Shown here: piece by piece, positions 95 to 12,262 of the stretch
How the letters are laid out: every line of letters starts with the position of its first letter
Numbering within the stretch: position 1 is the first letter of the stretch
Assembly (NCBI GenBank): GCA_008080735.1
Contig: SHMW01000101.1
Location: 1-13,193, forward strand
Direction of reading: 5' to 3'
DNA from: Promethearchaeota archaeon
Lineage (GTDB): Archaea; Asgardarchaeota; Lokiarchaeia; Sigyniarchaeales; SOKP01
Length of the DNA: 13,193 bases
Program-made: the position numbers and the translations under genes
The notes under the pieces: generated by a model
What the model was told of the DNA's origin: nothing
The model's input: only the letters and a program-made list of their open reading frames with translations
Database searches by the model: none

Positions 95-838
95 ATGAAA
101 AATGGGAATCATTTAAATCCGAAATTGGAAGAAAATATTAGGGATTTAATTAAGAAACAACTGGAAACTAGTGATGCGCTAATTGGGATAACATGTGGCA
201 CTCACGGAGGAACTTTTATTGCCAGTGAATTTCAAAAAGAAATTGCTATGAAACAACAAGAAATCACAGCGGCAAATAGTAGCATTTTATTTCTCTCTTC
301 CAAATTACTAAAAAATTCCTTAAATCAAGATATCTCTTACGATTTAATTGCAGGAAAACAGAGAATCGTTTTATCAGTTTTAACAGAACATATTACTTTG
401 ATAGCTCACTTAAACAGAGAATTAGCGGAATTAGAAGGAGTAAATAAATATATTTCCAAATTAAAAGAATTTGCATTACAAATTTCGGCAATTGTGGAAA
501 CTTCTGATATTATTAAAGAAGAGATTTTTGTAAAAGTAAAGAGAGCAATTCCAAATGCGCTTGTAATTGCTATCATTACAAAGGAAGGCATCCCGATTAA
601 AGTTCAAGCGACTATGGCTGAACCTATGCTCTCTGCAATGATTTCTGCTCTCTATAAATTATCAGGTATTTTATTAGAACAAAGCGGCTTAGAATATTCT
701 GTTATTGGAGGGAATGCAGGATCTATTATTATTGCCGAACTGGATGAGACCCGAATACTTTGCGTAGCAGTGCCTGAAGCCAAAGATACAAAACTCGGGG
801 GATATATTGCAAAAATTAAATCAATTATCGAATCTTAA
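95..838 (+). CDS. Tandem (double) Roadblock/LC7-MglB-like domain protein
   Basis: Two ~115-aa halves each show the Roadblock pattern: LIGITCGTHGGTFIAS vs LVIAIITKEGIPIKV, ITAANSSILFLSSKLL vs LSAMISALYKLSGILL, ISYDLIAGKQRIVL vs LEYSVIGGNAGSIII. Each half ends in an amphipathic helix. Confidence 0.75.
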   Translation: MKNGNHLNPKLEENIRDLIKKQLETSDALIGITCGTHGGTFIASEFQKEIAMKQQEITAANSSILFLSSKLLKNSLNQDISYDLIAGKQRIVLSVLTEHITLIAHLNRELAELEGVNKYISKLKEFALQISAIVETSDIIKEEIFVKVKRAIPNALVIAIITKEGIPIKVQATMAEPMLSAMISALYKLSGILLEQSGLEYSVIGGNAGSIIIAELDETRILCVAVPEAKDTKLGGYIAKIKSIIES

Positions 839-2080
839 TTATCCAACTAATCGAAAGATATCATCGGTAATTTTAAGGGCTTTAAAGAAGGATTCAGCAA
901 AATTCTTGTCCTTATATAAAATAGTACAGACAGGGTGATTTTTTTGAATGGGTTCTACTGGTGGGCTTTTATCATGTACATATTTCATTTTGTTAATAAT
1001 CTTAATTTTTGAAATTGGAATAGTATCTGGAGCAAAAACTATTAATTTTGTGGTAAAAGTATTCATTTCTGAGTTTTTTAGTACATTTTTCACTTTTTCC
1101 CATTTTGAAAGAGTAAAACTTTTTATGTGTAGATTTAATAAATTTAACCCTAAAGATTCCTCTGAAGCTCTAATAGATCCAGGAATTCTGGGATTAATCT
1201 CCATTAGGTAAGGTACGTGATCCTTGATTACAAAATCGAAGCCATTTATCCCTCTTAATTTTAAGGTGTCTGCTAAATTATTTGAAATTTTAAGAATTCT
1301 TTTCCTATCCGCTTGAGTTAAATAAGCTGGAACCACATTTCCACAATACATAAAAGGTTTGGGGGGATTTAATAGTTTTAATCCAATTATTTGGCGGTTT
1401 ATAGATATAATCTCAGTATCTCTTCCATTAGAAATGATAGTACAACTTACCGGAATTCCTTCAATATACTCTTGTAGTAACCATTCATTCAAAATATCCG
1501 AATCTTCAATCTGTTGGATTTTCATATTTAAATTGCTAATGTTATCTACTTTATACACATTAGCACCCCCAGAGCTTGATTTCTTCTTTAAGATTAGGGG
1601 AAATTGGAGATGGCCATAGACCTCAGTCTTGTTAAGAGGGATAGTGTGAGGGACCGAAAATCCATTTGACTTCAGATATGAATATATTTGCTCGATATCT
1701 CTTGCTCTCTTAATGGTTTCTAAATTATTATTGAGGCTAATAATCCGAGAATCTTTTTGGAGTATATACTCTAGAATCATTCTTCTCTCATCAAAGGCAT
1801 CATCCAGTCCACTCCCAATCAATAAAAAATCAATATTAGGGTGTCTTTTCAATAATTCAATACAAAATTTTGCTAAATAATATTTAAAATTTTCCTTGAG
1901 GTTTTCATATGTGTCATCTAATTCATCAGTAACAATTATAGAATCCTTAACATACGGATATAAGTCAAGATCACCGAAAAAATCTACAGCATAGACTTCT
2001 AATCCTGCTTTATGAAGTGAATATGCTAAAGGACGCACATTAAATCCAACAACAATTACCGATCCCTTCGCCTTTGACAT
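839..2080 (-). CDS. ATP-grasp domain carboxylate-amine ligase (COG2232-like, substrate unknown)
   Basis: N-terminal VVGFNVRPLA...AVDFFGDLDL, plus ATP-grasp motifs FPLILKKKSSSGG, WLLQEYIEG, GINGFDF and MEINPR. Confidence 0.88.
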   Translation of the reverse strand: MSKAKGSVIVVGFNVRPLAYSLHKAGLEVYAVDFFGDLDLYPYVKDSIIVTDELDDTYENLKENFKYYLAKFCIELLKRHPNIDFLLIGSGLDDAFDERRMILEYILQKDSRIISLNNNLETIKRARDIEQIYSYLKSNGFSVPHTIPLNKTEVYGHLQFPLILKKKSSSGGANVYKVDNISNLNMKIQQIEDSDILNEWLLQEYIEGIPVSCTIISNGRDTEIISINRQIIGLKLLNPPKPFMYCGNVVPAYLTQADRKRILKISNNLADTLKLRGINGFDFVIKDHVPYLMEINPRIPGSIRASEESLGLNLLNLHIKSFTLSKWEKVKNVLKNSEMNTFTTKLIVFAPDTIPISKIKIINKMKYVHDKSPPVEPIQKNHPVCTILYKDKNFAESFFKALKITDDIFRLVG

Positions 2081-2230: not shown

Positions 2231-4435
2231 TTATATCATTTTTTTAAGCTTTAAAATTAAATTTTCGGGGTGATACTTATCAAATTGATAGAGCTCGGCA
2301 TTTCCGTAGACTTTAAAATTCTTTTTAATTTTATCTGCTGAATAAGGATGCACACCAAGTGCCTGCGTAGCGTAGCTCTTTTTGGGTTCAAGAACTACCA
2401 TATGAACCTTCTCTTGTGATAATTTTTTTGTAATTTCCTTTAATTCTTCGACAATTAAGGTATAATCACTTTCCACTTGAGCAATTAAATTAGGATGTTT
2501 GACTGATATATTTGCTCCACAATCGGAGCATATAAATATAACAGGGATAATGTTTCTGTTCTTTAAGCGTTCAATTTTAATAAGTTCTTGACATTTCTTT
2601 AAGCCCGCAGCCATAGGAGTATAAGATTTACCTTCTAAATCTTTTAATTTTTGTATCGCATTCTGAAATGATACCGTCGGTTTTTGGAGAACAACCGCAT
2701 CCTTCCCGCGAAAGACTATTAATGAGATTTTATCTTTCTTTCTATATCCTTCTCGTTGAAGAGATAAAATTACATCGGTCATTTGTTTTATTACATAATA
2801 CATTGATGCTGAGCTATCAAGCACAAAAAACAGGCATAGAGGTGCACGATATTCATAGATTTTGTCTTTTAAATCGTATTTATCAAATTTGATAGGAAAA
2901 TCAATCTCGGTATCGTTGTATACCGCATTTTTCAAATACGTTCTAATGGTGGCATCTAATGCTATACTTTTTGGTTGCTGTCCAATTGGAGAGCGGTAAG
3001 ATACATATCGTCCTTTTTGAGATGATGCGATTTTGATACGACGTCCAATCCCACGTCCACCATAATCAGATATTTTACGATCCTTACGTATATTATCGAG
3101 GATTGATGTCATTTTTTTTTCCATTTTGTAAATTAATGGAATTACATCAAATCCATTGTCGGTGAGATTGAAATCCTCCTCTGCTGGAATTTCTTTAACC
3201 TTCCAGCCTCCAGCAGGATGTCGATTACGTTTTTTTTCATCCTCATATTTCGGAGGGGGTAATTTCTGCTCTTTTGTTTCTGGTATATCTACTTTATCAG
3301 GATCAATGGATTGGCGTTTGAATTCTTCTTGAGGCTCATCCGAATGTTTTAATGGACCCTCTGTCTCATCATTAGGTTGATATATATCGGGATCTTCATA
3401 GGCCTCACGTATTTTTCCATAAACTTCCATGATTTTGCTTTTTATCTCTTCGGGAGTCATTTCGTAATGTAGAGATTTTATTCTATGCTCGAACACTAAA
3501 TCCATCGCGATATTAAGATCTTCCTCAATTAAATGGTCTCTATTATTAAAGGCAGCATGTGCACGCGCACATCTTATAAAAGTGATATCTGCTCTCTGGG
3601 AAAATATATCCAATTCATTAACTGTTTGAGCTACTAACTCATAGATTTTGTTTGGAATCTTGACATTTTTAATTATTTTTCTCGCTTGAAGAAGCTTTTT
3701 ACGTAATTCCTTCTGTTCATCTTCATATTTTTTGATGAATTCTTTTGGATTGTCGTTGAATTCAATTACTCTTTTAGTAATTTCTGCACGTATGCTTGGA
3801 TCACGTGGAGCTTTGATCTTCACTTCCAAGCCTAACCTATCTGCGATTTGTGGTCTTAATTCTCCTTCCTCTGGATTCATACTCCCCACTAATACAAATC
3901 GTGAAGGATGCATAACAGAGATACCCTCACGTTCAATAATATTCACGCCAGATGCCGACGCATCTAATAGCGTATCTACAATATGGTCTTGTAGAAGGTT
4001 AATCTCATCAATATAGAGAATACCCCTATTTGCCTTTGCCAATAATCCAGGATGCAATTCAGAAATACCTTCAGTCAGGACTTTATCGATCGAAAGTGAG
4101 CCTGTGACCATATCTTCTGTTACTCCTAAAGGAAGATTGACTAAGCGCATATCACGCTTCATCGTTTCAATTTCCCCTTCTTTTTTCTTTTTTTGGCATT
4201 CAGTACATAACTCATCCATGTCAGAATTTGGATCGCATGAAAAGGGACATGCTTTTACCACTTCAATTTGAGGCATTACTTCAACTAATGACCGAACAGC
4301 GGTTGACTTGCCGGTTCCTTGATGACCAGACAAGAGAACACCGCCCACTTGGGGATCAATTACGTTAAGAATCAACGCCATTTTCATCCTTTGTTGTCCC
4401 AAAATCGCTGTAAAGGGGAAGTTTAATTTTTTCAT
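2231..4435 (-). CDS. Magnesium/cobalt chelatase ChlI/ChlD-family AAA+ ATPase with C-terminal vWA domain
   Basis: FPFTAILGQ start, Walker A GHQGTGKST, Cys cluster CPFSCDP...CTEC, PGLLAKANRGILYIDE (Walker B) and GSMNPEEGELRPQIADR. An acidic/Pro-rich linker leads to a vWA domain with MIDAS DSSAS, TPMAAGL and ICSD. Confidence 0.92.
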   Translation of the reverse strand: MKKLNFPFTAILGQQRMKMALILNVIDPQVGGVLLSGHQGTGKSTAVRSLVEVMPQIEVVKACPFSCDPNSDMDELCTECQKKKKEGEIETMKRDMRLVNLPLGVTEDMVTGSLSIDKVLTEGISELHPGLLAKANRGILYIDEINLLQDHIVDTLLDASASGVNIIEREGISVMHPSRFVLVGSMNPEEGELRPQIADRLGLEVKIKAPRDPSIRAEITKRVIEFNDNPKEFIKKYEDEQKELRKKLLQARKIIKNVKIPNKIYELVAQTVNELDIFSQRADITFIRCARAHAAFNNRDHLIEEDLNIAMDLVFEHRIKSLHYEMTPEEIKSKIMEVYGKIREAYEDPDIYQPNDETEGPLKHSDEPQEEFKRQSIDPDKVDIPETKEQKLPPPKYEDEKKRNRHPAGGWKVKEIPAEEDFNLTDNGFDVIPLIYKMEKKMTSILDNIRKDRKISDYGGRGIGRRIKIASSQKGRYVSYRSPIGQQPKSIALDATIRTYLKNAVYNDTEIDFPIKFDKYDLKDKIYEYRAPLCLFFVLDSSASMYYVIKQMTDVILSLQREGYRKKDKISLIVFRGKDAVVLQKPTVSFQNAIQKLKDLEGKSYTPMAAGLKKCQELIKIERLKNRNIIPVIFICSDCGANISVKHPNLIAQVESDYTLIVEELKEITKKLSQEKVHMVVLEPKKSYATQALGVHPYSADKIKKNFKVYGNAELYQFDKYHPENLILKLKKMI

Positions 4436-4903: not shown

Positions 4904-6067
4904 ATGAATAGGTATAAACTTCTCAATATCGCGAAAACATATTTTAAATCGGTATTTTATTCCATCTTGCCCAAGAGAACGGTACCTCTATGGACACATT
5001 TATGGGTGACTCGTAGATGTAATCTAAGATGTAAATACTGCTATGTTTCTCATGAAAAATATCCTGAAATGAATACAATAGAGCTTAAAAAAGCAATCAA
5101 GCATATTAAAGAAAAGTTGCATTGTAGTTTCATTGCTTTAATGGGAGGAGAACCCACCATCAGAAAGGATTTGCCCGAGATCATTCAGTATATGACGGAT
5201 TTAAATATAACCTCCTTTTTGACGACGAATGGAACATTACTGGATGAACGCAAAATTTTTCAACTTTGTGAATCTGATGTTGATTTCATAGAATTATCTC
5301 TCGATGGGATGAGCCCCTCTCCTATCAGTGAAAAAACGGGTCAAAACCTAATGAATATCCTTGAAATTTTAATCAAATACACTAAAACTTATGACGTGGG
5401 GCTCTCTATTAATATGGTAATTACAAAACAGAACTATAAGGAATTATATGAGTTGATTCGATTAGTCTCCGGAGAACCCATATCTATTACAACGGGATTA
5501 TATATTCCAGACCTACAAGATGAAAAAAATATTCTCGATGATCCTTTTGCTTTTATTTCCTCTGAAGATCTAATCAATCTTGATGGTTTTGTTAACCGAA
5601 TTATTAATCTTAAAAATAAGGGAGCATTCCTTGCGATGGATGACTCATATTACAAAAAATGGGTTCCTTTTATGAGAGAACTATTAAAACGTCCACCTCA
5701 AAAACCAAAAAAACTCTGGAAATGTAAAGCAGGGAAAAATTTTCTTGAGATTGATTGCGATGGTAGAATTCGATATTGTTCCTATTTGAATCAATTAGTT
5801 GATGAAGATCTAACGATTATTGATTTGGATTTATCCTATTACCATCAATTAGGCTCGAGATTTAAAAATATGTTGAAGAGATGTAATAATAGATGTCTTT
5901 CAAATTGTTTTTACCAAGTGAGTTTAATTAAGAATCATCCATTTAAGTTTGCCGATGAATTCGTATTTAAGCACGCAATGCCTTTTGTATATGAGTTGTT
6001 TGACCGAGAGAAGACATCGGAGAAAATGGCACTAAAAAATGAATGGCGGAAGAAATTTAATTATTGA
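4904..6067 (+). CDS. Radical SAM enzyme (MoaA/PqqE-like superfamily) with C-terminal Twitch/SPASM-like Cys cluster
   Basis: CNLRCKYC (CxxxCxxC), MGGEP, TTNG and LSLDG motifs. C-terminal CKAGKNFLEIDCDGRIRYC and CNNRCLSNC could bind an auxiliary Fe-S cluster. Confidence 0.92.
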   Translation: MNRYKLLNIAKTYFKSVFYSILPKRTVPLWTHLWVTRRCNLRCKYCYVSHEKYPEMNTIELKKAIKHIKEKLHCSFIALMGGEPTIRKDLPEIIQYMTDLNITSFLTTNGTLLDERKIFQLCESDVDFIELSLDGMSPSPISEKTGQNLMNILEILIKYTKTYDVGLSINMVITKQNYKELYELIRLVSGEPISITTGLYIPDLQDEKNILDDPFAFISSEDLINLDGFVNRIINLKNKGAFLAMDDSYYKKWVPFMRELLKRPPQKPKKLWKCKAGKNFLEIDCDGRIRYCSYLNQLVDEDLTIIDLDLSYYHQLGSRFKNMLKRCNNRCLSNCFYQVSLIKNHPFKFADEFVFKHAMPFVYELFDREKTSEKMALKNEWRKKFNY

Positions 6068-6143: not shown

Positions 6144-7094
6144 CTAAAATTTATTGGCTAATTCTTCAAATTTGGAGTTTAATGTCGCCACTTTTTCATC
6201 CCATTTAGATAAGATTTCATTTACTTTCGGAATTACTCGTTCTCTCTCTTTAAACTCGAGATAATTCATAAAATCTTTGATATTTTCAATATTTATGAAT
6301 GTTTTTGCCACAAACTTTCGAATATCTTTTACTTGTTCTTCTAAGACTTCTTGAGTTCGGTGTTGCTCTCCTTTCCTAACCAATGTTTTTAGATACTCCT
6401 CTGTACCTAATAATTTAGAATTCAATTCATTGATTTTATCAGAGATATATTTCTCATACCGTTCATAGATATCCCTACGAGGAAAAAAGTTAGTTATATC
6501 GATGATAAATTTTTGAATTTGTTTAACCATCTGCTCTCTGCTTTCATACCCTTCAATTTGATAATCGATTTCATGATAGGATGCTTCAATCCCTCTATTT
6601 ACATCATCCAAACGGAAGATTTTAAATCCAGGATCATTTTTGAGTTGTTTCACTGGATCACCTTTCTTTTCAGGAAGTTCGACTTGTCGGATGAGGCGCA
6701 CCGGATTAAAAACTAAGGAAACGGCTTTCGGATTGTTTTGCTGGTAAGAAAGGGTTGTTTTTACATCTAACTGGGACATCATTACTTTAAAGCCAGGATG
6801 ACTATGCCACCATCCAAGCGTAAAATCGCCTTGAGAGAATGCTCTATCGTCAATAATACTAAAAGACTCATAATCTTCGGTATTCCAATATACCTTATCA
6901 ATGATATCTTCAGGGTTTTTCTCTTGATGCGTAATCGGATAAGCCTCAGAAATAATTACGTCCTCACCTTCAATATTTCCAATGAATATTCCGTAGACTT
7001 CCAACCAGTCATCTTCGGGCATCCGCGTGTTCGCAAAACGTACGCTCGCAGCAACAATGGTTTTGTAAACTTCTTTCGGTATTATTACTGTCAT
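6144..7094 (-). CDS. MPN+/JAMM metalloisopeptidase (Rpn11/CSN5-like) with C-terminal helical domain
   Basis: Catalytic Glu in WLEVYGIFIG and a complete HxHx7Sx2D motif in GWWHSHPGFKVMMSQLD (H97, H99, S107, D110). The C-terminal ~130 aa look alpha-helical. Confidence 0.9.
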   Translation of the reverse strand: MTVIIPKEVYKTIVAASVRFANTRMPEDDWLEVYGIFIGNIEGEDVIISEAYPITHQEKNPEDIIDKVYWNTEDYESFSIIDDRAFSQGDFTLGWWHSHPGFKVMMSQLDVKTTLSYQQNNPKAVSLVFNPVRLIRQVELPEKKGDPVKQLKNDPGFKIFRLDDVNRGIEASYHEIDYQIEGYESREQMVKQIQKFIIDITNFFPRRDIYERYEKYISDKINELNSKLLGTEEYLKTLVRKGEQHRTQEVLEEQVKDIRKFVAKTFINIENIKDFMNYLEFKERERVIPKVNEILSKWDEKVATLNSKFEELANKF

Positions 7095-7387: not shown

Positions 7388-8014
7388 ATGACTGAAAAAG
7401 GATTTGAACCATTATCCAGCCAGCTAGGTATACCTGGGACTTCATACCGGCTCCAGCTTGGATTAATTAACGATAAATGGGCATCTCGGATTCTTAAGGG
7501 AAATAATATTATCGATTCTTACGTATTTAAGGATGAGGATGTCGGGGGAGGTTATCCTAATCAAAATCTAATCGTGGGTTGGGTTCTTAGAACCGTTGCG
7601 ATTCCAAATATCAATCCACATCAAGTTATGAAAACAACTCAAGCGTTAATGAAGCAAGCACGGACTAATAAGGAGAAACAAAAAGTTAAAGCACCACTTT
7701 CCGAAACTAAAGACGTGGAATTGGAGAGGGTTCCAGAAACTGAAATAAAGCGACCAAAAACAAGTGGATGGGTAAAAGAAGAAGCTCCGAGTTCTATGAG
7801 CGAGTCTGAAAAACGTCAAGCGTTTCAAGAGAGAGTAAAAACTAAAAAGGAGGGTGAAGCAACTAGCAGCCAACATAAACGTGAGCTTCCGAAGATTCCA
7901 AGTGCTGGTGGTGAGGAGATGAGCGAAGCAGAAAAGACTTTTTGCCCCTTCTGTGGAAAAGATTTGACTTTTATTTATTGCCCTTACTGTGGTAAGAAAC
8001 TACCACATGACTGA
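7388..8014 (+). CDS. Hypothetical protein: N-terminal globular domain, charged low-complexity linker, C-terminal zinc ribbon
   Basis: 208-aa ORF with SD-like GAGGA at 7372-7376. C-terminus CPFCGKDLTFIYCPYCGKKL provides four Cys (CPxCG-x7-CPxCG). Confidence 0.8.
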   Translation: MTEKGFEPLSSQLGIPGTSYRLQLGLINDKWASRILKGNNIIDSYVFKDEDVGGGYPNQNLIVGWVLRTVAIPNINPHQVMKTTQALMKQARTNKEKQKVKAPLSETKDVELERVPETEIKRPKTSGWVKEEAPSSMSESEKRQAFQERVKTKKEGEATSSQHKRELPKIPSAGGEEMSEAEKTFCPFCGKDLTFIYCPYCGKKLPHD

Positions 8015-8055: not shown

Positions 8056-8166
8056 AATTAATCGACTAAAATGCGTCAATTTAAAGCAACATTTTTATAC
8101 ATCAATCTTTCAAATGAAATCTAATCATGAAAATTTTGAGAAAAACCTTAATAATGAGGATTGTTT

Positions 8167-8778
8167 ATGATTAAAACAATTATATTTGACCTTGGAAATG
8201 TTCTGATTAACTTTAAACCAGCAGAATTCTTGATGCAATTTACAGATAATATCTTCGAAATAAATGATTTTGTAAAGAAAGTCCCGAAAAGCAAAATTTG
8301 GTTTGATCTAGATCGAGGAAAGTTGACTGTTAAAGAAGCATATGAGATTTTTCTTAAGCGGTACCCTGAAAAAGGGGAATTATTAAATCTTTTTTTTAAG
8401 GAGAATAAATGGATGGAAATGCTTACACCCATTCAGAAAAATGTAGATATTCTCAGAGATTTAAAGATTAATGGATATGGGCTATACATTCTATCAAGTT
8501 TTATCGAAGAGGCATTTTCTTATGTGCAATCTATATATGAATTTTTATCTCTATTTGATGGAGGTGTGATTTCCTATCAAGTAGGAACTATTAAACCAGA
8601 AAAAACAATATATCGTATATTATTGCAACAATACAATCTTAATCCCGAGGAAAGTCTTTTCATAGACGACCATAAAGTAATCTTAAAACCTGCAAGACAA
8701 CTTGGGATGAAGGTAATTCATTATCAACCCGATACTGATTTACGGGAGGAATTGCGGAAATTTTCTGTTAAGATATAG
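8167..8778 (+). CDS. HAD-superfamily phosphatase (subfamily IA, YihX-like)
   Basis: Motif I IIFDLGNVL, motif II ILSS, motif III KPE and motif IV FIDD. ATG 8167 is preferred over TTG 8161 because GAGGA at 8156-8160 is correctly spaced for it. Confidence 0.9.
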   Translation: MIKTIIFDLGNVLINFKPAEFLMQFTDNIFEINDFVKKVPKSKIWFDLDRGKLTVKEAYEIFLKRYPEKGELLNLFFKENKWMEMLTPIQKNVDILRDLKINGYGLYILSSFIEEAFSYVQSIYEFLSLFDGGVISYQVGTIKPEKTIYRILLQQYNLNPEESLFIDDHKVILKPARQLGMKVIHYQPDTDLREELRKFSVKI

Positions 8779-8898: not shown

Positions 8899-10491
8899 GT
8901 GAGAAAAGTGAGATCAAGGAAGTCAAATTTATCTGACAATTCAAAAGTGATCATAAAGCCTGAAGCCTATTATAAAATGCTTGTCCATGTGTTAAGGTTT
9001 GGAGCAAAAACAATCCGAGGGCAAGGATATAAAGAAGTTATGGGAATTTTAATAGGGCGATTGGAAGGTGAAGGTACGATTAAAGATGTGATAATAGAAG
9101 ATGCGGTACCCGTGTCACATGGAGGATCAATCGAAGTTAGATTTGCTCCAGAGGATTATGCAACGTTTTCTATGATTGATGAAAAATTCGCGAAAGAGAA
9201 TTTATTTAGTGTGGGATGGTTTCACTCTCATCCGGGATTAGATATTTTCTTTTCAAGTACAGATATTATGAACCAATTAGGATGGCAGACACCAAATCCA
9301 AGTGCTATCGGAATCGTTTTTGATCACACTTACTTGGATAGACCCGGAGATCTTGGCTTTCGCACTTTTCGGTTAGATGACCCTTCAAAAGGGGAAGCAT
9401 CTGGTTATCATGAAGTAGAAACGATTGTAGAACCGCCAGATAGCTTAAAATTCTATGAAAAAATTATTAGCTTAATCTCAAGTGTCCATACGAAGGAACC
9501 TCCAATTCTCGAATTAAATGAAAAACCCAACTTGTTTGGAGAAATTTTATTCCCATCTGACGGAGATTTGATGGTCGAAATGCCTCAAATCAGTACTGAG
9601 AAAATCGTAAATATGATAAAGATGGGATTTTTCAACATAATAGAATCCTTGATTGAACCTGTGATTCGACAATATAATAAATGGAGTCAGAATATTCTAA
9701 AAAATATTAGCAGTCAAAATTTATTGATAAAAAGAAATCTAGTTGATGTGAAAACAACAATTAACGATCAACTAAACGAAGTACAAAATACTTATTCTAC
9801 AAAGCTCAAAAACTTATTTAATGAAATGGACTATTACATTGATGATAGATTTGACAGCATAGATGTAAAATTAGAAACCATAGAAGAAGAGGTAAGTCAG
9901 TTGGAACAAACTCTAACGGATGATATTAGTAATAAAATCAACATAATGATTAAAGAAATGAGAAATGATTTCAGTAAAACATATCAGAGCAATCTGACAA
10001 ATTTAGAACATTTAAGGGAAAATATCTCAAAATCAAAAGAATTCTTTACTCAACAAGAAGAACTCCTCAAAAAGATAGAAGTTCAACCAGAAAAGATTCA
10101 GGCAATTCTTAAAAAGGAGATTGGAAATTATTTAACAACAGCAAATGACGACTTTAATAAAAATTACGAAAATTTGAATAAGATTATTAACAATTCAGAG
10201 GAACGCGCGGAAAAGGTGGAATCCAAATTGGCGGATTCCCTTTCAATCCTTGAGAGTTCAGTTGAGCCCTTAGAACAAAAAATCAATAATCTCAACACAG
10301 ATAAAAAGGTTCTGCAAAACAAGATTGATAAAGCAACATCACAAATTAACGAAAAAGACAAAAAAATCGAATCCTTAGAGAATGACAATAAAAATCTTTC
10401 AGAAGAAATGAAAAAAGAAAAAAAGGAAAATGAGAAACTGCGAGAAAAACTCAAAAAATTAGAAAAAAAGGTGGAGAAAAATGCCAAATAA
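8899..10491 (+). CDS. MPN+/JAMM metalloisopeptidase (Rpn11/CSN5/BRCC36-like) fused to a long coiled coil
   Basis: KEVMGILIG and VGWFHSHPGLDIFFSSTD (intact HxHx7Sx2D, His codons at 9223 and 9229), then NPSAIGIVFD. About 300 aa of heptad-rich helix follow, ending in a K/E-rich tail. The GTG start is uncertain (8899 or 8908). Confidence 0.92.
   Translation: MRKVRSRKSNLSDNSKVIIKPEAYYKMLVHVLRFGAKTIRGQGYKEVMGILIGRLEGEGTIKDVIIEDAVPVSHGGSIEVRFAPEDYATFSMIDEKFAKENLFSVGWFHSHPGLDIFFSSTDIMNQLGWQTPNPSAIGIVFDHTYLDRPGDLGFRTFRLDDPSKGEASGYHEVETIVEPPDSLKFYEKIISLISSVHTKEPPILELNEKPNLFGEILFPSDGDLMVEMPQISTEKIVNMIKMGFFNIIESLIEPVIRQYNKWSQNILKNISSQNLLIKRNLVDVKTTINDQLNEVQNTYSTKLKNLFNEMDYYIDDRFDSIDVKLETIEEEVSQLEQTLTDDISNKINIMIKEMRNDFSKTYQSNLTNLEHLRENISKSKEFFTQQEELLKKIEVQPEKIQAILKKEIGNYLTTANDDFNKNYENLNKIINNSEERAEKVESKLADSLSILESSVEPLEQKINNLNTDKKVLQNKIDKATSQINEKDKKIESLENDNKNLSEEMKKEKKENEKLREKLKKLEKKVEKNAK
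10468..10476 (+). promoter_or_regulatory. SD-like ribosome-binding site inside the upstream CDS (translational coupling)
   Basis: AAGGTGGAG directly upstream of ATG 10481. The upstream stop is at 10489-10491, giving an 11-bp overlap. Confidence 0.55.
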
Positions 10492-11830
10492 CAATAAAGA
10501 TAGTAGACAAAGTAAAATCGTAGTAGACATAAAAAAGGAAGCTTTCAGAAATATTATTGCGCATATATTTCGATTTGGGCATGAAGCTTTAGATGAAAGT
10601 GTAGATACTATGGGATTCTGTTTAGGATCCCTTGAACAAGATCATTATGTCGTTAAAAATGCCATACCTGTCTCACATGGACCCAGCCTTAGGAAAAATT
10701 ATTTCTCAAAAAAATCAAAATTAGTTAATCAAATCGAAGAAAAATATCAAGATGAAAATCTACAATTAATCGGTTGGTACATTTCTCATCCTTCAGAAGG
10801 AGTTGAATGGAAAGAGATAGACATTCAAAATCATCTTCAAATTCAAACTGAACGAAGACCTAATGCGTTTTGCATTCTATTAGATCATAAATTGATCAGA
10901 AAAGAGGATGATTTTGGAGTCAAGATCTATACTCTGAAAGATTTTGAAATGGGAGAGGCAAGCGAAATTAAGGAATTAGCCTATAAGGTGGAATCTCCAA
11001 ATAGTTTGGATTTTTTTAATTGGGTACAAAAATTTGTAGAAGATTATCACAAAAGTGATCCTATATTGATTAAAGAGATTGAGGAAATAGTCGAACCGAA
11101 AGCAGAAATGCTTCAGGAGATCCCCTCAGAAATGGAGGGTATTCAGGAAAGTGAAATAAACTTCGGTCCGCACTTCCAAAATAGTCTCGAAGAATTCGGA
11201 GAGATGATCGATACTGTCTTTAAAACTGAAATAAACACATCTATGAATGGATTTGTACAAGAGGTCTTAAGGGGTTCCAAAAAATTGGAGAATAGCACTA
11301 AGCAGATGAGAGATAATATCACATTAGGCATGCAAAGACTTGGTAAATGGTTTGAAACTCAAATTGAAGAAATATCGAGAACTTTCAAGAACAGTGTTAA
11401 AAATTCAACCGAAACACGGGTAAACCAAGTTTTGACTTTAGAGGAATTAATAAGAGAAAAATCGGATGATGTTTCTCTCCATCTCCAGCAAATAATAGAA
11501 GATGATCTGCAAACGCAGCAGAGAGAAATAAAGGGAAAATTGGAACAAATGGGAACTAAATTGAAAGAGCTAATATCGATCAATTCTACTAACTTGGAAA
11601 ATCAACAAAAAGTTAAAGACATCACCCAGAAACTAAATAAATCCATCCAAGAACTCTCTTCAAAGCTAATTGAGGATTTAAACCCTTTAATTAAGGATTT
11701 GATTGAGCAACAAACCCAAAATCTTGAAGATTTAAAACAAAGGAACGAATTAATCGACCAAAAGTATTCTATAATAGAAGAGAGTATTAAAAAATTGGAA
11801 AAAGCAATATTGAGTCTTAGAAATATTTGA
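10481..11830 (+). CDS. MPN- (catalytically degenerate JAMM) protein fused to a long coiled coil
   Basis: Aligns with the upstream paralogue (HIFRFG/HVLRFG, AIPVSHG/AVPVSHG, GEAS, ESPNSLDF/EPPDSLKF). Catalytic positions differ: DTMG for EVMG, and WYISHPSEGVEWKEID with His to Ile and Ser to Lys. The C-terminal half is helical/coiled coil. Confidence 0.88.
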   Translation: MPNNNKDSRQSKIVVDIKKEAFRNIIAHIFRFGHEALDESVDTMGFCLGSLEQDHYVVKNAIPVSHGPSLRKNYFSKKSKLVNQIEEKYQDENLQLIGWYISHPSEGVEWKEIDIQNHLQIQTERRPNAFCILLDHKLIRKEDDFGVKIYTLKDFEMGEASEIKELAYKVESPNSLDFFNWVQKFVEDYHKSDPILIKEIEEIVEPKAEMLQEIPSEMEGIQESEINFGPHFQNSLEEFGEMIDTVFKTEINTSMNGFVQEVLRGSKKLENSTKQMRDNITLGMQRLGKWFETQIEEISRTFKNSVKNSTETRVNQVLTLEELIREKSDDVSLHLQQIIEDDLQTQQREIKGKLEQMGTKLKELISINSTNLENQQKVKDITQKLNKSIQELSSKLIEDLNPLIKDLIEQQTQNLEDLKQRNELIDQKYSIIEESIKKLEKAILSLRNI

Positions 11831-11957: not shown

Positions 11958-12233
11958 TTACGACCAGCTCAAACTTGAGACCATAGATACCCTCAGTTTA
12001 AACTTCGGTATATTAGTTCTTAGTCGTTTTAACTCGTTTCTTTTTGCGAGATTACTTAAAATCCTTCCAATTTTATCTACTCTGATATCAATTCCGTAAT
12101 TATCACTAAGAACAGAACTAATTTTATATGAGGAGAGGATAACTACTTCTGAAATAGATTTTTCGCACAATAATTCGATCGCTTCCTTGATAAGACTAAG
12201 CAAGCTTTCTTTATCATCTACTTTCTTTTCCAT
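11958..12233 (-). CDS. Small basic protein, possible winged helix-turn-helix DNA-binding fold
   Basis: 91 aa from ATG 12233 (TTG 12242 is an alternative start). Pattern SSYKISSVLSDNYGIDIRVDKIGRILSNLAKRNELKRLRTNIPKFKL reads as helix-turn-helix plus beta wing. The fold call is tentative. Confidence 0.6.
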   Translation of the reverse strand: MEKKVDDKESLLSLIKEAIELLCEKSISEVVILSSYKISSVLSDNYGIDIRVDKIGRILSNLAKRNELKRLRTNIPKFKLRVSMVSSLSWS

Positions 12234-12262
12234 CTTTCTCAAATTTAAATGTGAATGATTTA

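Follow-up and report, generated by a model that had tools for sequence, protein, structure and literature searches.

The 13,193-nucleotide (nt) contig SHMW01000101.1 of a Promethearchaeota archaeon (GenBank assembly GCA_008080735.1), referred to here in its full length as the window, carries on its forward strand two overlapping genes, gene 1 and gene 2, that encode paralogous MPN-domain proteins, of which the first has an intact JAMM active site and the second has lost it. As judged by a computed model of the complex and by conservation, the two proteins probably form a heteromer in which gene 1 is the constant catalytic subunit. Our fuller proposal, which we think reasonably likely, is that the genes constitute a lineage-specific operon of the Promethearchaeia that specifies a heteromer of MPN paralogues, with gene 1 acting as a zinc isopeptidase (the heteromer is argued from the model and from conservation, whereas we infer the catalysis) and gene 2 serving as a partner whose own site is dispensable, in parallel to the arrangement found in eukaryotes. 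The proteasome lid, the COP9 signalosome, the BRISC and BRCA1-A complexes, and eIF3 all have an active/inactive MPN dimer as their core. The two genes and their parts are as follows, with the residues of gene 1 counted from position 8899.

8908-10491, forward strand: gene 1, an MPN+ (JAMM) protein of 527 amino acids (aa) from GTG 8908; the reading frame is open from GTG 8899 (530 aa)
8944-9486, forward strand: gene-1 MPN domain, residues 16-196 (PF01398 and AlphaFold2 model)
9034-9036, forward strand: gene-1 catalytic Glu46
9223-9264, forward strand: gene-1 JAMM motif, HSHPGLDIFFSSTD
9487-9636, forward strand: gene-1 linker, residues 197-246, with a near-invariant KEPPILE.NE and low model confidence
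9637-10482, forward strand: gene-1 tail, one predicted helix of 282 residues (247-528), hydrophobic period ~3.6
10470-10476, forward strand: Shine-Dalgarno-like GGTGGAG within the 3' end of gene 1, 4 nt ahead of the gene-2 ATG
10481-11830, forward strand: gene 2, an MPN- paralogue of 449 aa with an ATG start, a pseudoenzyme in this genome
10520-11050, forward strand: gene-2 MPN domain, residues 14-190 (AlphaFold2 model and Foldseek matches)
10604-10606, forward strand: gene-2 Asp42, in place of the catalytic Glu
10781-10822, forward strand: gene-2 degenerate motif, ISHPSEGVEWKEID
11051-11230, forward strand: gene-2 linker, residues 191-250, with an invariant PILIKEI.E...LQEIP
11231-11824, forward strand: gene-2 tail, one predicted helix of ~200 residues (251-448), hydrophobic period ~3.65, with apolipoprotein profile matches

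Both proteins match the Pfam JAB/MPN family PF01398 (E 2.8e-13 for gene 1 and 1.3e-10 for gene 2), and they are 32% identical across 196 aa (E 1e-31), so that the initial annotation of this DNA was right to call them paralogues. It had also reported an 11-bp overlap and an internal Shine-Dalgarno-like site, and both are present: the open reading frames, 8899-10491 and 10481-11830, share the 11 nt from 10481 to 10491, and the GGTGGAG lies at 10470-10476 in a window that is AT-rich throughout (G+C, ~31 to 35%). The extent that it gave for gene 1 is correct as an open reading frame, but the N termini of the orthologues indicate that translation most likely starts at GTG 8908 and not at 8899. Comparable GGAGG sites were found within the 3' end of gene 1 at two orthologous loci. 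Because of the 11-nt overlap and the internal Shine-Dalgarno site, one mRNA probably yields both proteins. The sequencing runs that contain this stretch are all DNA runs from marine-sediment metagenomes, with no RNA run listed.

Gene 1 conforms to the E-x(n)-H-S/T-H-x7-S-xx-D motif, with E46, H109-S-H111, seven intervening residues, and S119-xx-D122. The corresponding positions of gene 2 are D42, I101-S-H103, seven residues, and K111-xx-D114, meaning that the general-base Glu, the first His (one of three zinc ligands), and the Ser have been lost, while the second His and the Asp are kept, and the gene 2 of the window is MPN- by this motif. The intact and lost sites originally described (EHHSD against DIHKD at the five catalytic positions) were therefore read correctly.

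An alignment of the gene-1 family retrieved 80 loci from species-representative Asgard genomes, and counts across loci are given out of these 80 unless the window is added. Scored from the five catalytic alignment columns, gene 1 was EHHSD in 81 of 81 proteins. Gene 2 was EHHSD in 33 of 78 species (42%) and defective in the other 45, with ~18 different combinations of residues, including EIRTT, EHRSD, ELHSG, ESHSE, and QHHSD. A conserved loss of the gene-2 catalytic residues, which the initial annotation had put forward as a check, was thus not what we found; the losses are lineage specific and varied. In trees from which the catalytic columns were omitted and in which gene 1 served as the outgroup and root, gene 2 was monophyletic (support, 100) and its earliest branches were intact. 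The minimum number of changes between intact and defective states was 5 on the full-length tree, 4 on the tree of the MPN domain alone, and 7 on the tree of the tail alone. Since the regain of three or four residues is implausible, these changes are most simply read as independent losses.

The broken copies are under purifying selection and are not decaying. Across 15 pairs of close genomes, the median ratio of nonsynonymous to synonymous substitution (dN/dS) was 0.16 in the broken gene-2 MPN domain, the broken lineages ranging from 0.10 to 0.30, and 0.11 in gene 1; intact gene-2 MPN domains gave 0.20 in 9 further pairs. As a family, gene 2 evolves faster than gene 1. The low dN/dS of the broken copies implies that gene 2 is selected for something other than catalysis. 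The initial annotation had held that its idea would suffer if the orthologues of gene 2 mostly kept the HxH residues or were decaying; the first of these turned out to be half true, with the full site kept in 42% of species, and the second was not borne out.

One defective state, E-I/L-R-T-T, occurs in two groups of gene-2 proteins (loci L074, L075, L076, L069, L077, L066, and L070 and loci L008, L060, L040, L034, and L047). The tail tree separates the two groups (approximately unbiased test, p 4e-6), whereas the MPN-domain tree cannot reject a single clade (p 0.31), which suggests either that MPN and tail parts were exchanged between gene-2 lineages or that the state arose by convergence.

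The arrangement of the two genes is nearly constant. Adjacency was scored wherever more than 300 nt lay downstream of gene 1, which left 79 loci, the window included, and in all 79 gene 2 comes next after gene 1 in the same orientation, which answers the initial annotation's call for a synteny check. The most frequent gap is 6 nt, the extremes are -26 and +57 nt, and most gaps fall between 0 and 15 nt. Four open frames of 978 to 987 aa that looked like fusions of gene 1 and gene 2 proved to be two genes with an intervening stop codon.

The complex model favors pairing of the two proteins. Three runs scored 0.51, 0.65, and 0.64, giving a median of 0.64, compared with 0.00 for all three controls, and at least 84% of the contacts agreed between runs, with a partner pLDDT (the per-residue confidence of the model) of at least 66. 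The mark against which the score is read was reached by 58 of 80 solved complexes and by 2 of 110 mismatched pairs, counts that are only a rough guide here because our own family alignments were used for this one prediction of both full-length chains. The confident contacts join gene-1 residues 21-40 and 177-202 to gene-2 residues 22-37 and 170-196; in other words, the modeled interface consists of the first and last MPN helices (H1 and H4) plus the start of the linker, with gene-1 residues 192-202, which lie partly in the linker, falling within it. Beyond the domains, the tails touch in parallel register in the model, gene-1 residues 270-314 lying against gene-2 residues 265-306. In gene 2, conservation is higher in the modeled interface than in the remainder of the MPN domain (3.36 versus 2.73 bits; permutation p 0.0003), and most of the invariant positions of the gene-2 family fall in the H4/linker segment.

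Several observations weigh against this reading. The complete gene-2 active site is kept in 42% of species, so that a pseudoenzyme scaffold is not a property of the whole family, and in lineages with an intact gene 2 both subunits may be enzymes. In one genome (G174, locus L094, contig G174:C10) the two genes share a strand but are separated by ~6 kb, which was the one departure from adjacency seen. The gene-1 interface residues are no more conserved than the remaining domain, although this comparison is uninformative because the entire gene-1 domain is conserved. The modeled complex resembles solved MPN dimers, namely, the CsRpn11 homodimer and Rpn8-Rpn11, and its score may in part reflect that likeness or a memory of it; nor can the score separate the heterodimer from homodimers of gene 1 or of gene 2. 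CsRpn11 itself forms an H1/H4 homodimer in crystals (PMC6043591). Finally, the length ranges of the two proteins differ (477 to 624 aa for gene 1 and 438 to 471 aa for gene 2), and the tails cannot pair along their whole length. Because the length of gene 1 varies while that of gene 2 stays nearly constant, the distal part of the gene-1 tail is probably unpaired.

These points leave room for an alternative, which we consider unlikely but serious, in which the proteins do not pair at all. Each would be homo-oligomeric or would stand alone on its own stalk, and the genes would be cotranscribed paralogues with different jobs, an isopeptidase for gene 1 and an enzyme or a noncatalytic binder, according to lineage, for gene 2. 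The crystal homodimer of CsRpn11 (PMC6043591), the full gene-2 site in 33 of 78 species, tail lengths that do not track each other, and the blindness of the complex score to hetero- versus homo-assembly are all in keeping with it. On the other hand, the unbroken adjacency in 79 of 79 loci, the near-zero spacing, and the internal Shine-Dalgarno sites point to matched synthesis, the heteromer model scored 0.64 where controls scored 0.00, and no part of gene 2 is better conserved than the modeled contact surface, even where catalysis has gone, although a homodimer could use the same surface.

We therefore prefer a heteromer, in which two eukaryote-type MPN paralogues would assemble, most simply with a stoichiometry of 1:1. 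Gene 1 would be a constant zinc isopeptidase, and gene 2 would be a partner subunit kept for its fold and contact surface, with catalysis dispensable in the family and dead in this genome, its active site having been destroyed several times independently. Translation from one mRNA would ensure that both subunits are made together. As in the model, helices H1 and H4 of the two MPN domains and the conserved linker would make the contact, and the tails would start out parallel and side by side, probably serving as a stalk, a scaffold, or a surface anchor. Of the 1:1 heterodimer with a pseudoenzyme that was first suggested for this pair, the heteromer is favored by the adjacency, the Shine-Dalgarno sites, the complex score, the conserved interface, and selection, whereas a pseudoenzyme throughout the family is not.

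Of the eukaryotic systems, Rpn11-Rpn8 and CSN5-CSN6 provide the best fold and sequence matches to the pair. They too are paralogous active/inactive MPN pairs, with a helix-mediated contact that in our case comes from the model, and paralogous MPN+ and MPN- subunits are indeed encoded in this genome, whereas only 45 of 78 species in the family as a whole have an MPN- gene 2. The eukaryotic pairs sit in PCI-domain complexes with a C-terminal helical bundle, but no PCI-domain gene was found in the conserved neighborhood of the archaeal pair. Elsewhere in the genome, PF01399 matches only large proteins on other contigs, weakly and nonspecifically through winged helices, and 4 of 14 control genomes also gave matches when searched in this way. 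Unlike Rpn11-Rpn8 and CSN5-CSN6, the pair is confined to one archaeal order, and its gene 2 is not an orthologue of Rpn8 or CSN6.

By sequence, the nearest solved relative of gene 1 is CsRpn11 of Caldiarchaeum subterraneum (6fjv, E 4e-12; also 6fju), an archaeal JAMM domain of the eukaryote-like kind (PMC6043591), followed by Rpn11 and CSN5. In the CsRpn11 crystal homodimer, H1 and H4 lie parallel in a manner "grossly reminiscent" of Rpn8-Rpn11 (PMC6043591), and this arrangement matches that of our modeled pair. In contrast to the proteins described here, CsRpn11 has ~200 aa, no long tail, and no inactive paralogue, and it is encoded beside ubiquitin, E1, E2, and E3. The pair is not encoded next to ubiquitin, E1, and E2, and the CsRpn11 role in this genome belongs to a different gene, on contig C21. 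Fuchs et al. (2018) stated that an arrangement of the Rpn8-Rpn11 type was not known in archaea (PMC6043591), and our full-text literature searches found no description of the pair.

The coiled coils of BRCC36 and Abraxas are much shorter than the 200- to 280-residue hendecad-like tails seen here. BRCC36-Abraxas and BRCC36-KIAA0157 (ABRO1), which form the core of BRCA1-A and BRISC, likewise combine an MPN+ enzyme with an MPN- paralogue and place C-terminal helical segments side by side, and both proteins of the archaeal pair are modeled by AlphaFold2 as an MPN domain followed by a C-terminal helix, as in that type. BRISC and BRCA1-A also include MERIT40, a subunit with a VWA domain (PMC7692841), and the archaeal pair has a conserved VWA-protein neighbor. 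The MPN domains of BRCC36 and Abraxas contact each other through beta-sheets (PMC7692841), whereas H1 and H4 make the contact in our model. There is no orthology, the gene-2 profile matching BRCC36 no better than CSN5 or Rpn11, and, unlike the BRCC36-Abraxas type, the MPN- member of the pair is still intact in 42% of species.

A whole-genome search based on the GTDB taxonomy and restricted to genomes at least 80% complete found the pair in 111 of 117 genomes of the family to which the window belongs, in 4 of 11 genomes of a sister family, and in 0 of ~200 genomes from all other families of the phylum. The pair is thus confined to one GTDB order, not spread across the Asgard archaea as the initial annotation had envisaged. 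Two closed genomes of the sister family contain only an MPN gene like gene 3, the third MPN gene of the window (see below). Another sister-family genome, G133, has a second, shorter tandem MPN pair (C78:7302-9240, reverse strand) with open frames of 369 and 334 aa. The carriers are titled Promethearchaeota or Promethearchaeia at NCBI, i.e., they are Loki-type. A wide Asgard range, as implied by Thor-, Odin-, Hod-, and Hermodarchaeota labels on some of them, was rejected, because the GTDB grouping places all carriers in one order; the NCBI labels of some carrier metagenome-assembled genomes (those of L006, L010, L029, L036, and others) conflict with GTDB and look unreliable.

Within the genome, the closest paralogue of gene 2 is gene 1 (114 bits, versus at most 67 for the other MPN genes). 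The gene-2 profile scores 20 bits against Rpn8, compared with 38 to 42 bits against CSN5, CsRpn11, Rpn11, and BRCC36, and these profile scores, the nearest paralogue being gene 1, and the one-order distribution do not bear out orthology to Rpn8 or CSN6. This verdict on origin draws on similarity scores and distribution, the trees having comprised archaeal sequences. Because the distribution is limited to one order and gene 2 is closest to gene 1 and a poor match to Rpn8, the enzyme/pseudoenzyme pair appears to have arisen within this archaeal order, as a parallel to the eukaryotic design of Rpn11-Rpn8, CSN5-CSN6, and BRCC36-Abraxas and not as its ancestor; of "a precursor of, or a parallel to" that architecture, as it was first put, the second half stands and the first does not.

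If this is correct, it would represent a separately arisen prokaryotic active/inactive MPN pair. Because it is confined to one order, it would have little bearing on the ancestry of the eukaryotic complexes. With a partner site that some species keep whole and that at least 4 to 5 separate lineages have lost, the family would be a natural replicate experiment on how active enzymes give rise to dead twins of the kind represented by Rpn8, CSN6, and Abraxas. The combination of intact-partner lineages, independently broken lineages, and a selected contact surface would make the passage from enzyme to obligate pseudoenzyme testable across orthologous pairs.

The substrate of the pair bears on a further alternative, and for this the surrounding genes of the window are needed.

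95-838, forward strand: Roadblock-domain protein, 48/80 loci
839-2080, reverse strand: ATP-grasp ligase, 60/80 loci
2231-4435, reverse strand: ChlI/ChlD-like AAA+-VWA protein, 66/80 loci
6144-7094, reverse strand: gene 3, a third MPN+ protein of 316 aa with an intact JAMM motif and a ~130-aa helical tail, on the opposite strand upstream of gene 1
7388-8014, forward strand: lineage-specific protein with a C-terminal double zinc ribbon, homologue in 76/80 loci, median offset from gene 1 -826 nt
11958-12242, reverse strand: small winged-helix-like protein of ~91 to 94 aa, convergent with gene 2, 70/80 loci

By the type of its MPN domain, the substrate of the pair would most plausibly be a conjugate of ubiquitin or of a ubiquitin-like protein. 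Genes for ubiquitin-like proteins (on contigs C37 and C21), an E1, and E2s are present in the genome, and contig C21 carries a canonical ubiquitin operon (L087:4131-8486) that specifies a ubiquitin-like protein of 120 aa, a ThiF-type E1 of 408 aa, and an E2 of 175 aa, together with an Rpn11-like MPN protein (264 aa) and an unassigned 374-aa gene product. A Pfam scan of the window detected no ubiquitin-system gene. Weighing against a ubiquitin-type role for the pair, the C21 MPN protein is nearer to Rpn11 than gene 1 is (53.5 versus 38.7 bits), and closer to eukaryotic Rpn11 than any of genes 1 to 3.

It is accordingly conceivable, if improbable in our estimation, that the heteromer is a peptidase other than a deubiquitinase, one that takes off a different tag or peptide, such as one attached by the neighboring ATP-grasp ligase, or that processes another substrate. 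Prokaryotic MPN/JAB domains act on several non-ubiquitin substrates, the ubiquitin-E1-E2 operon lies elsewhere and has a protease of its own, and the ATP-grasp ligase is a neighbor at 60 of 80 loci. Nevertheless, the MPN domains of the pair are of the Rpn11/CSN5/CsRpn11 type in both sequence and fold, the ATP-grasp and chelatase-like genes lie several kilobases off on the other strand and are absent from 14 to 20 of the 80 loci, and no tag gene was seen in the cluster.

The genome contains six MPN genes. The MPN set of this Loki-type Asgard archaeon thus exceeds a single protease in a ubiquitin operon, with six eukaryote-like proteins, and it reflects a lineage-specific expansion of eukaryote-type MPN proteins that are stalked or otherwise extended. 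Two further MPN+ proteins, one of 551 aa with a weak SNAP/TPR-like C-terminal match (L088:2392-4047, forward strand) and one of 395 aa (L089:2513-3700, reverse strand), resemble gene 1 to the same degree as genes 2 and 3 do.

AlphaFold2 models built from the family alignments (mean pLDDT, 73.6 for gene 1 and 75.6 for gene 2) give both proteins a common plan, in which an MPN domain extending to residue ~190 to 196 is followed by a linker of ~50 residues and then by one unbroken helix. The linkers are modeled at low confidence in both proteins, yet they are highly conserved. The MPN fold of gene 2 was matched by Foldseek to Rpn8, CSN5, CsRpn11, and Rpn11 (probability 1.00) and also to CSN6, eIF3h, and BRCC36. 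In the tails, hydrophobicity peaks at a period of 3.60 to 3.65 residues across 81 gene-1 and 77 gene-2 proteins, with a power ~5 to 6 times that of shuffled sequences. The long helical tails first noted on both proteins are thus borne out as single helices (residues 247-528 and 251-448), but their description as coiled coils is not, the tails having a ~3.6-residue periodicity, unlike a heptad coiled coil, and being apolipoprotein-like. Low-scoring NCBIfam matches to SMC, Rad50, and EzrA, far under their cutoffs, were discarded.

On sequence grounds, we read the tails as hendecad-like amphipathic helices, which could associate as a straight two-helix rod or bundle or else rest on a lipid surface, and if fully helical they could span ~30 to 40 nm. 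Exchangeable apolipoproteins (ApoA-IV, ApoA-I, and apolipophorin III) likewise have long amphipathic helices with a periodicity of ~11 residues, and the tails share with them both the ~11/3-residue hydrophobic periodicity and profile similarity; the tails differ in lacking 22-mers punctuated by proline, and the likeness may be convergent. One could therefore imagine a mainly structural role, in which the amphipathic tails assemble into a filament or rod or bind membrane or lipid, with the MPN heads being chiefly binding modules. We regard this as very unlikely. The hydrophobic period of 3.60 to 3.65 in both families, the similarity of the gene-2 profile to those of ApoA-IV (E 8e-10), ApoA-I, and apolipophorin III, and the precomputed Pfam assignment of PF01442 to many relatives would all suit it, but the five JAMM residues are invariant in all 81 gene-1 orthologues, which argues for selected catalysis, the apolipoprotein matches can stem from shared composition and periodicity, and a core of ~30% hydrophobic residues also fits helical bundles. 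A more specific form of the heteromer that we prefer, to which we commit ourselves only tentatively, is an independently built, stalked MPN+/MPN- isopeptidase that would act on ubiquitin-type conjugates at a membrane or large scaffold.

That gene 2 in the window is simply a decaying pseudogene left by tandem duplication is hardly credible: three of its five catalytic residues are lost and its family evolves faster than that of gene 1, but the data contradict decay, with a full-length open frame, orthologues in 79 of 79 loci, the dN/dS of 0.10 to 0.30 in broken lineages, and the invariant residues of the H4/linker segment.

Among the genes around the pair, those for the Roadblock, ATP-grasp, and AAA+-VWA proteins are conserved syntenic neighbors with only a putative functional tie to it. 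The AAA+-VWA protein scores 588 bits against TIGR02442, under the cutoff of 779 bits. A VWA neighbor recalls the VWA subunits found beside eukaryotic MPN dimers, Rpn10 being such a subunit in the proteasome, although this may be a coincidence or the protein may be a bystander chelatase. In most relatives the zinc-ribbon gene immediately precedes gene 1 in the same orientation, and a search of the Atlas with its product returned only its own Asgard clusters. In the window, a HAD-hydrolase gene (8161-8778, forward strand) sits between the zinc-ribbon gene and gene 1; this gene and a radical-SAM gene (4904-6067, forward strand) have a homologue in 1 of 80 loci each and are local insertions into the conserved block. 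For the small convergent open reading frame, the nearest named Atlas clusters were winged-helix families, a weak lead at 0.86.

Gene 3 belongs to the same conserved cluster, although it lies outside the region covered by the initial annotation. It is present, divergent from gene 1, in 72 of 81 loci with the window included, and its five catalytic columns read EHH[S/T]D in all 60 full-length copies. At ten related loci, gene 3 is split at one identical position in the JAMM motif (HSHPGF / KVMMSHID) by an insert of 30 to 32 nt that contains stop codons (L019:6495-6540, reverse strand, and the same codon position in L009, L010, L024, L028, L041, L045, L046, L060, and L066). The region folds as a relaxed bulge-helix-bulge, and if each bulge is cut behind its second nucleotide, ...WWHSHPGFKVMMSHID... 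is regained in 10 of 10 cases; the central helix of 4 bp is paired at every one of the ten loci, two of its variants being compensatory (GGUU/AACU and GGCU/AGUU). The insert is therefore a candidate tRNA-type intron in an mRNA, and probably is one to judge from these features; within the literature we could search, such an intron has been reported for cbf5 of Crenarchaeota (PMC2738675). The gene 3 of the window is uninterrupted, and because the close relatives L007 and L012 also lack the insert, its gain or loss would appear to be recent.

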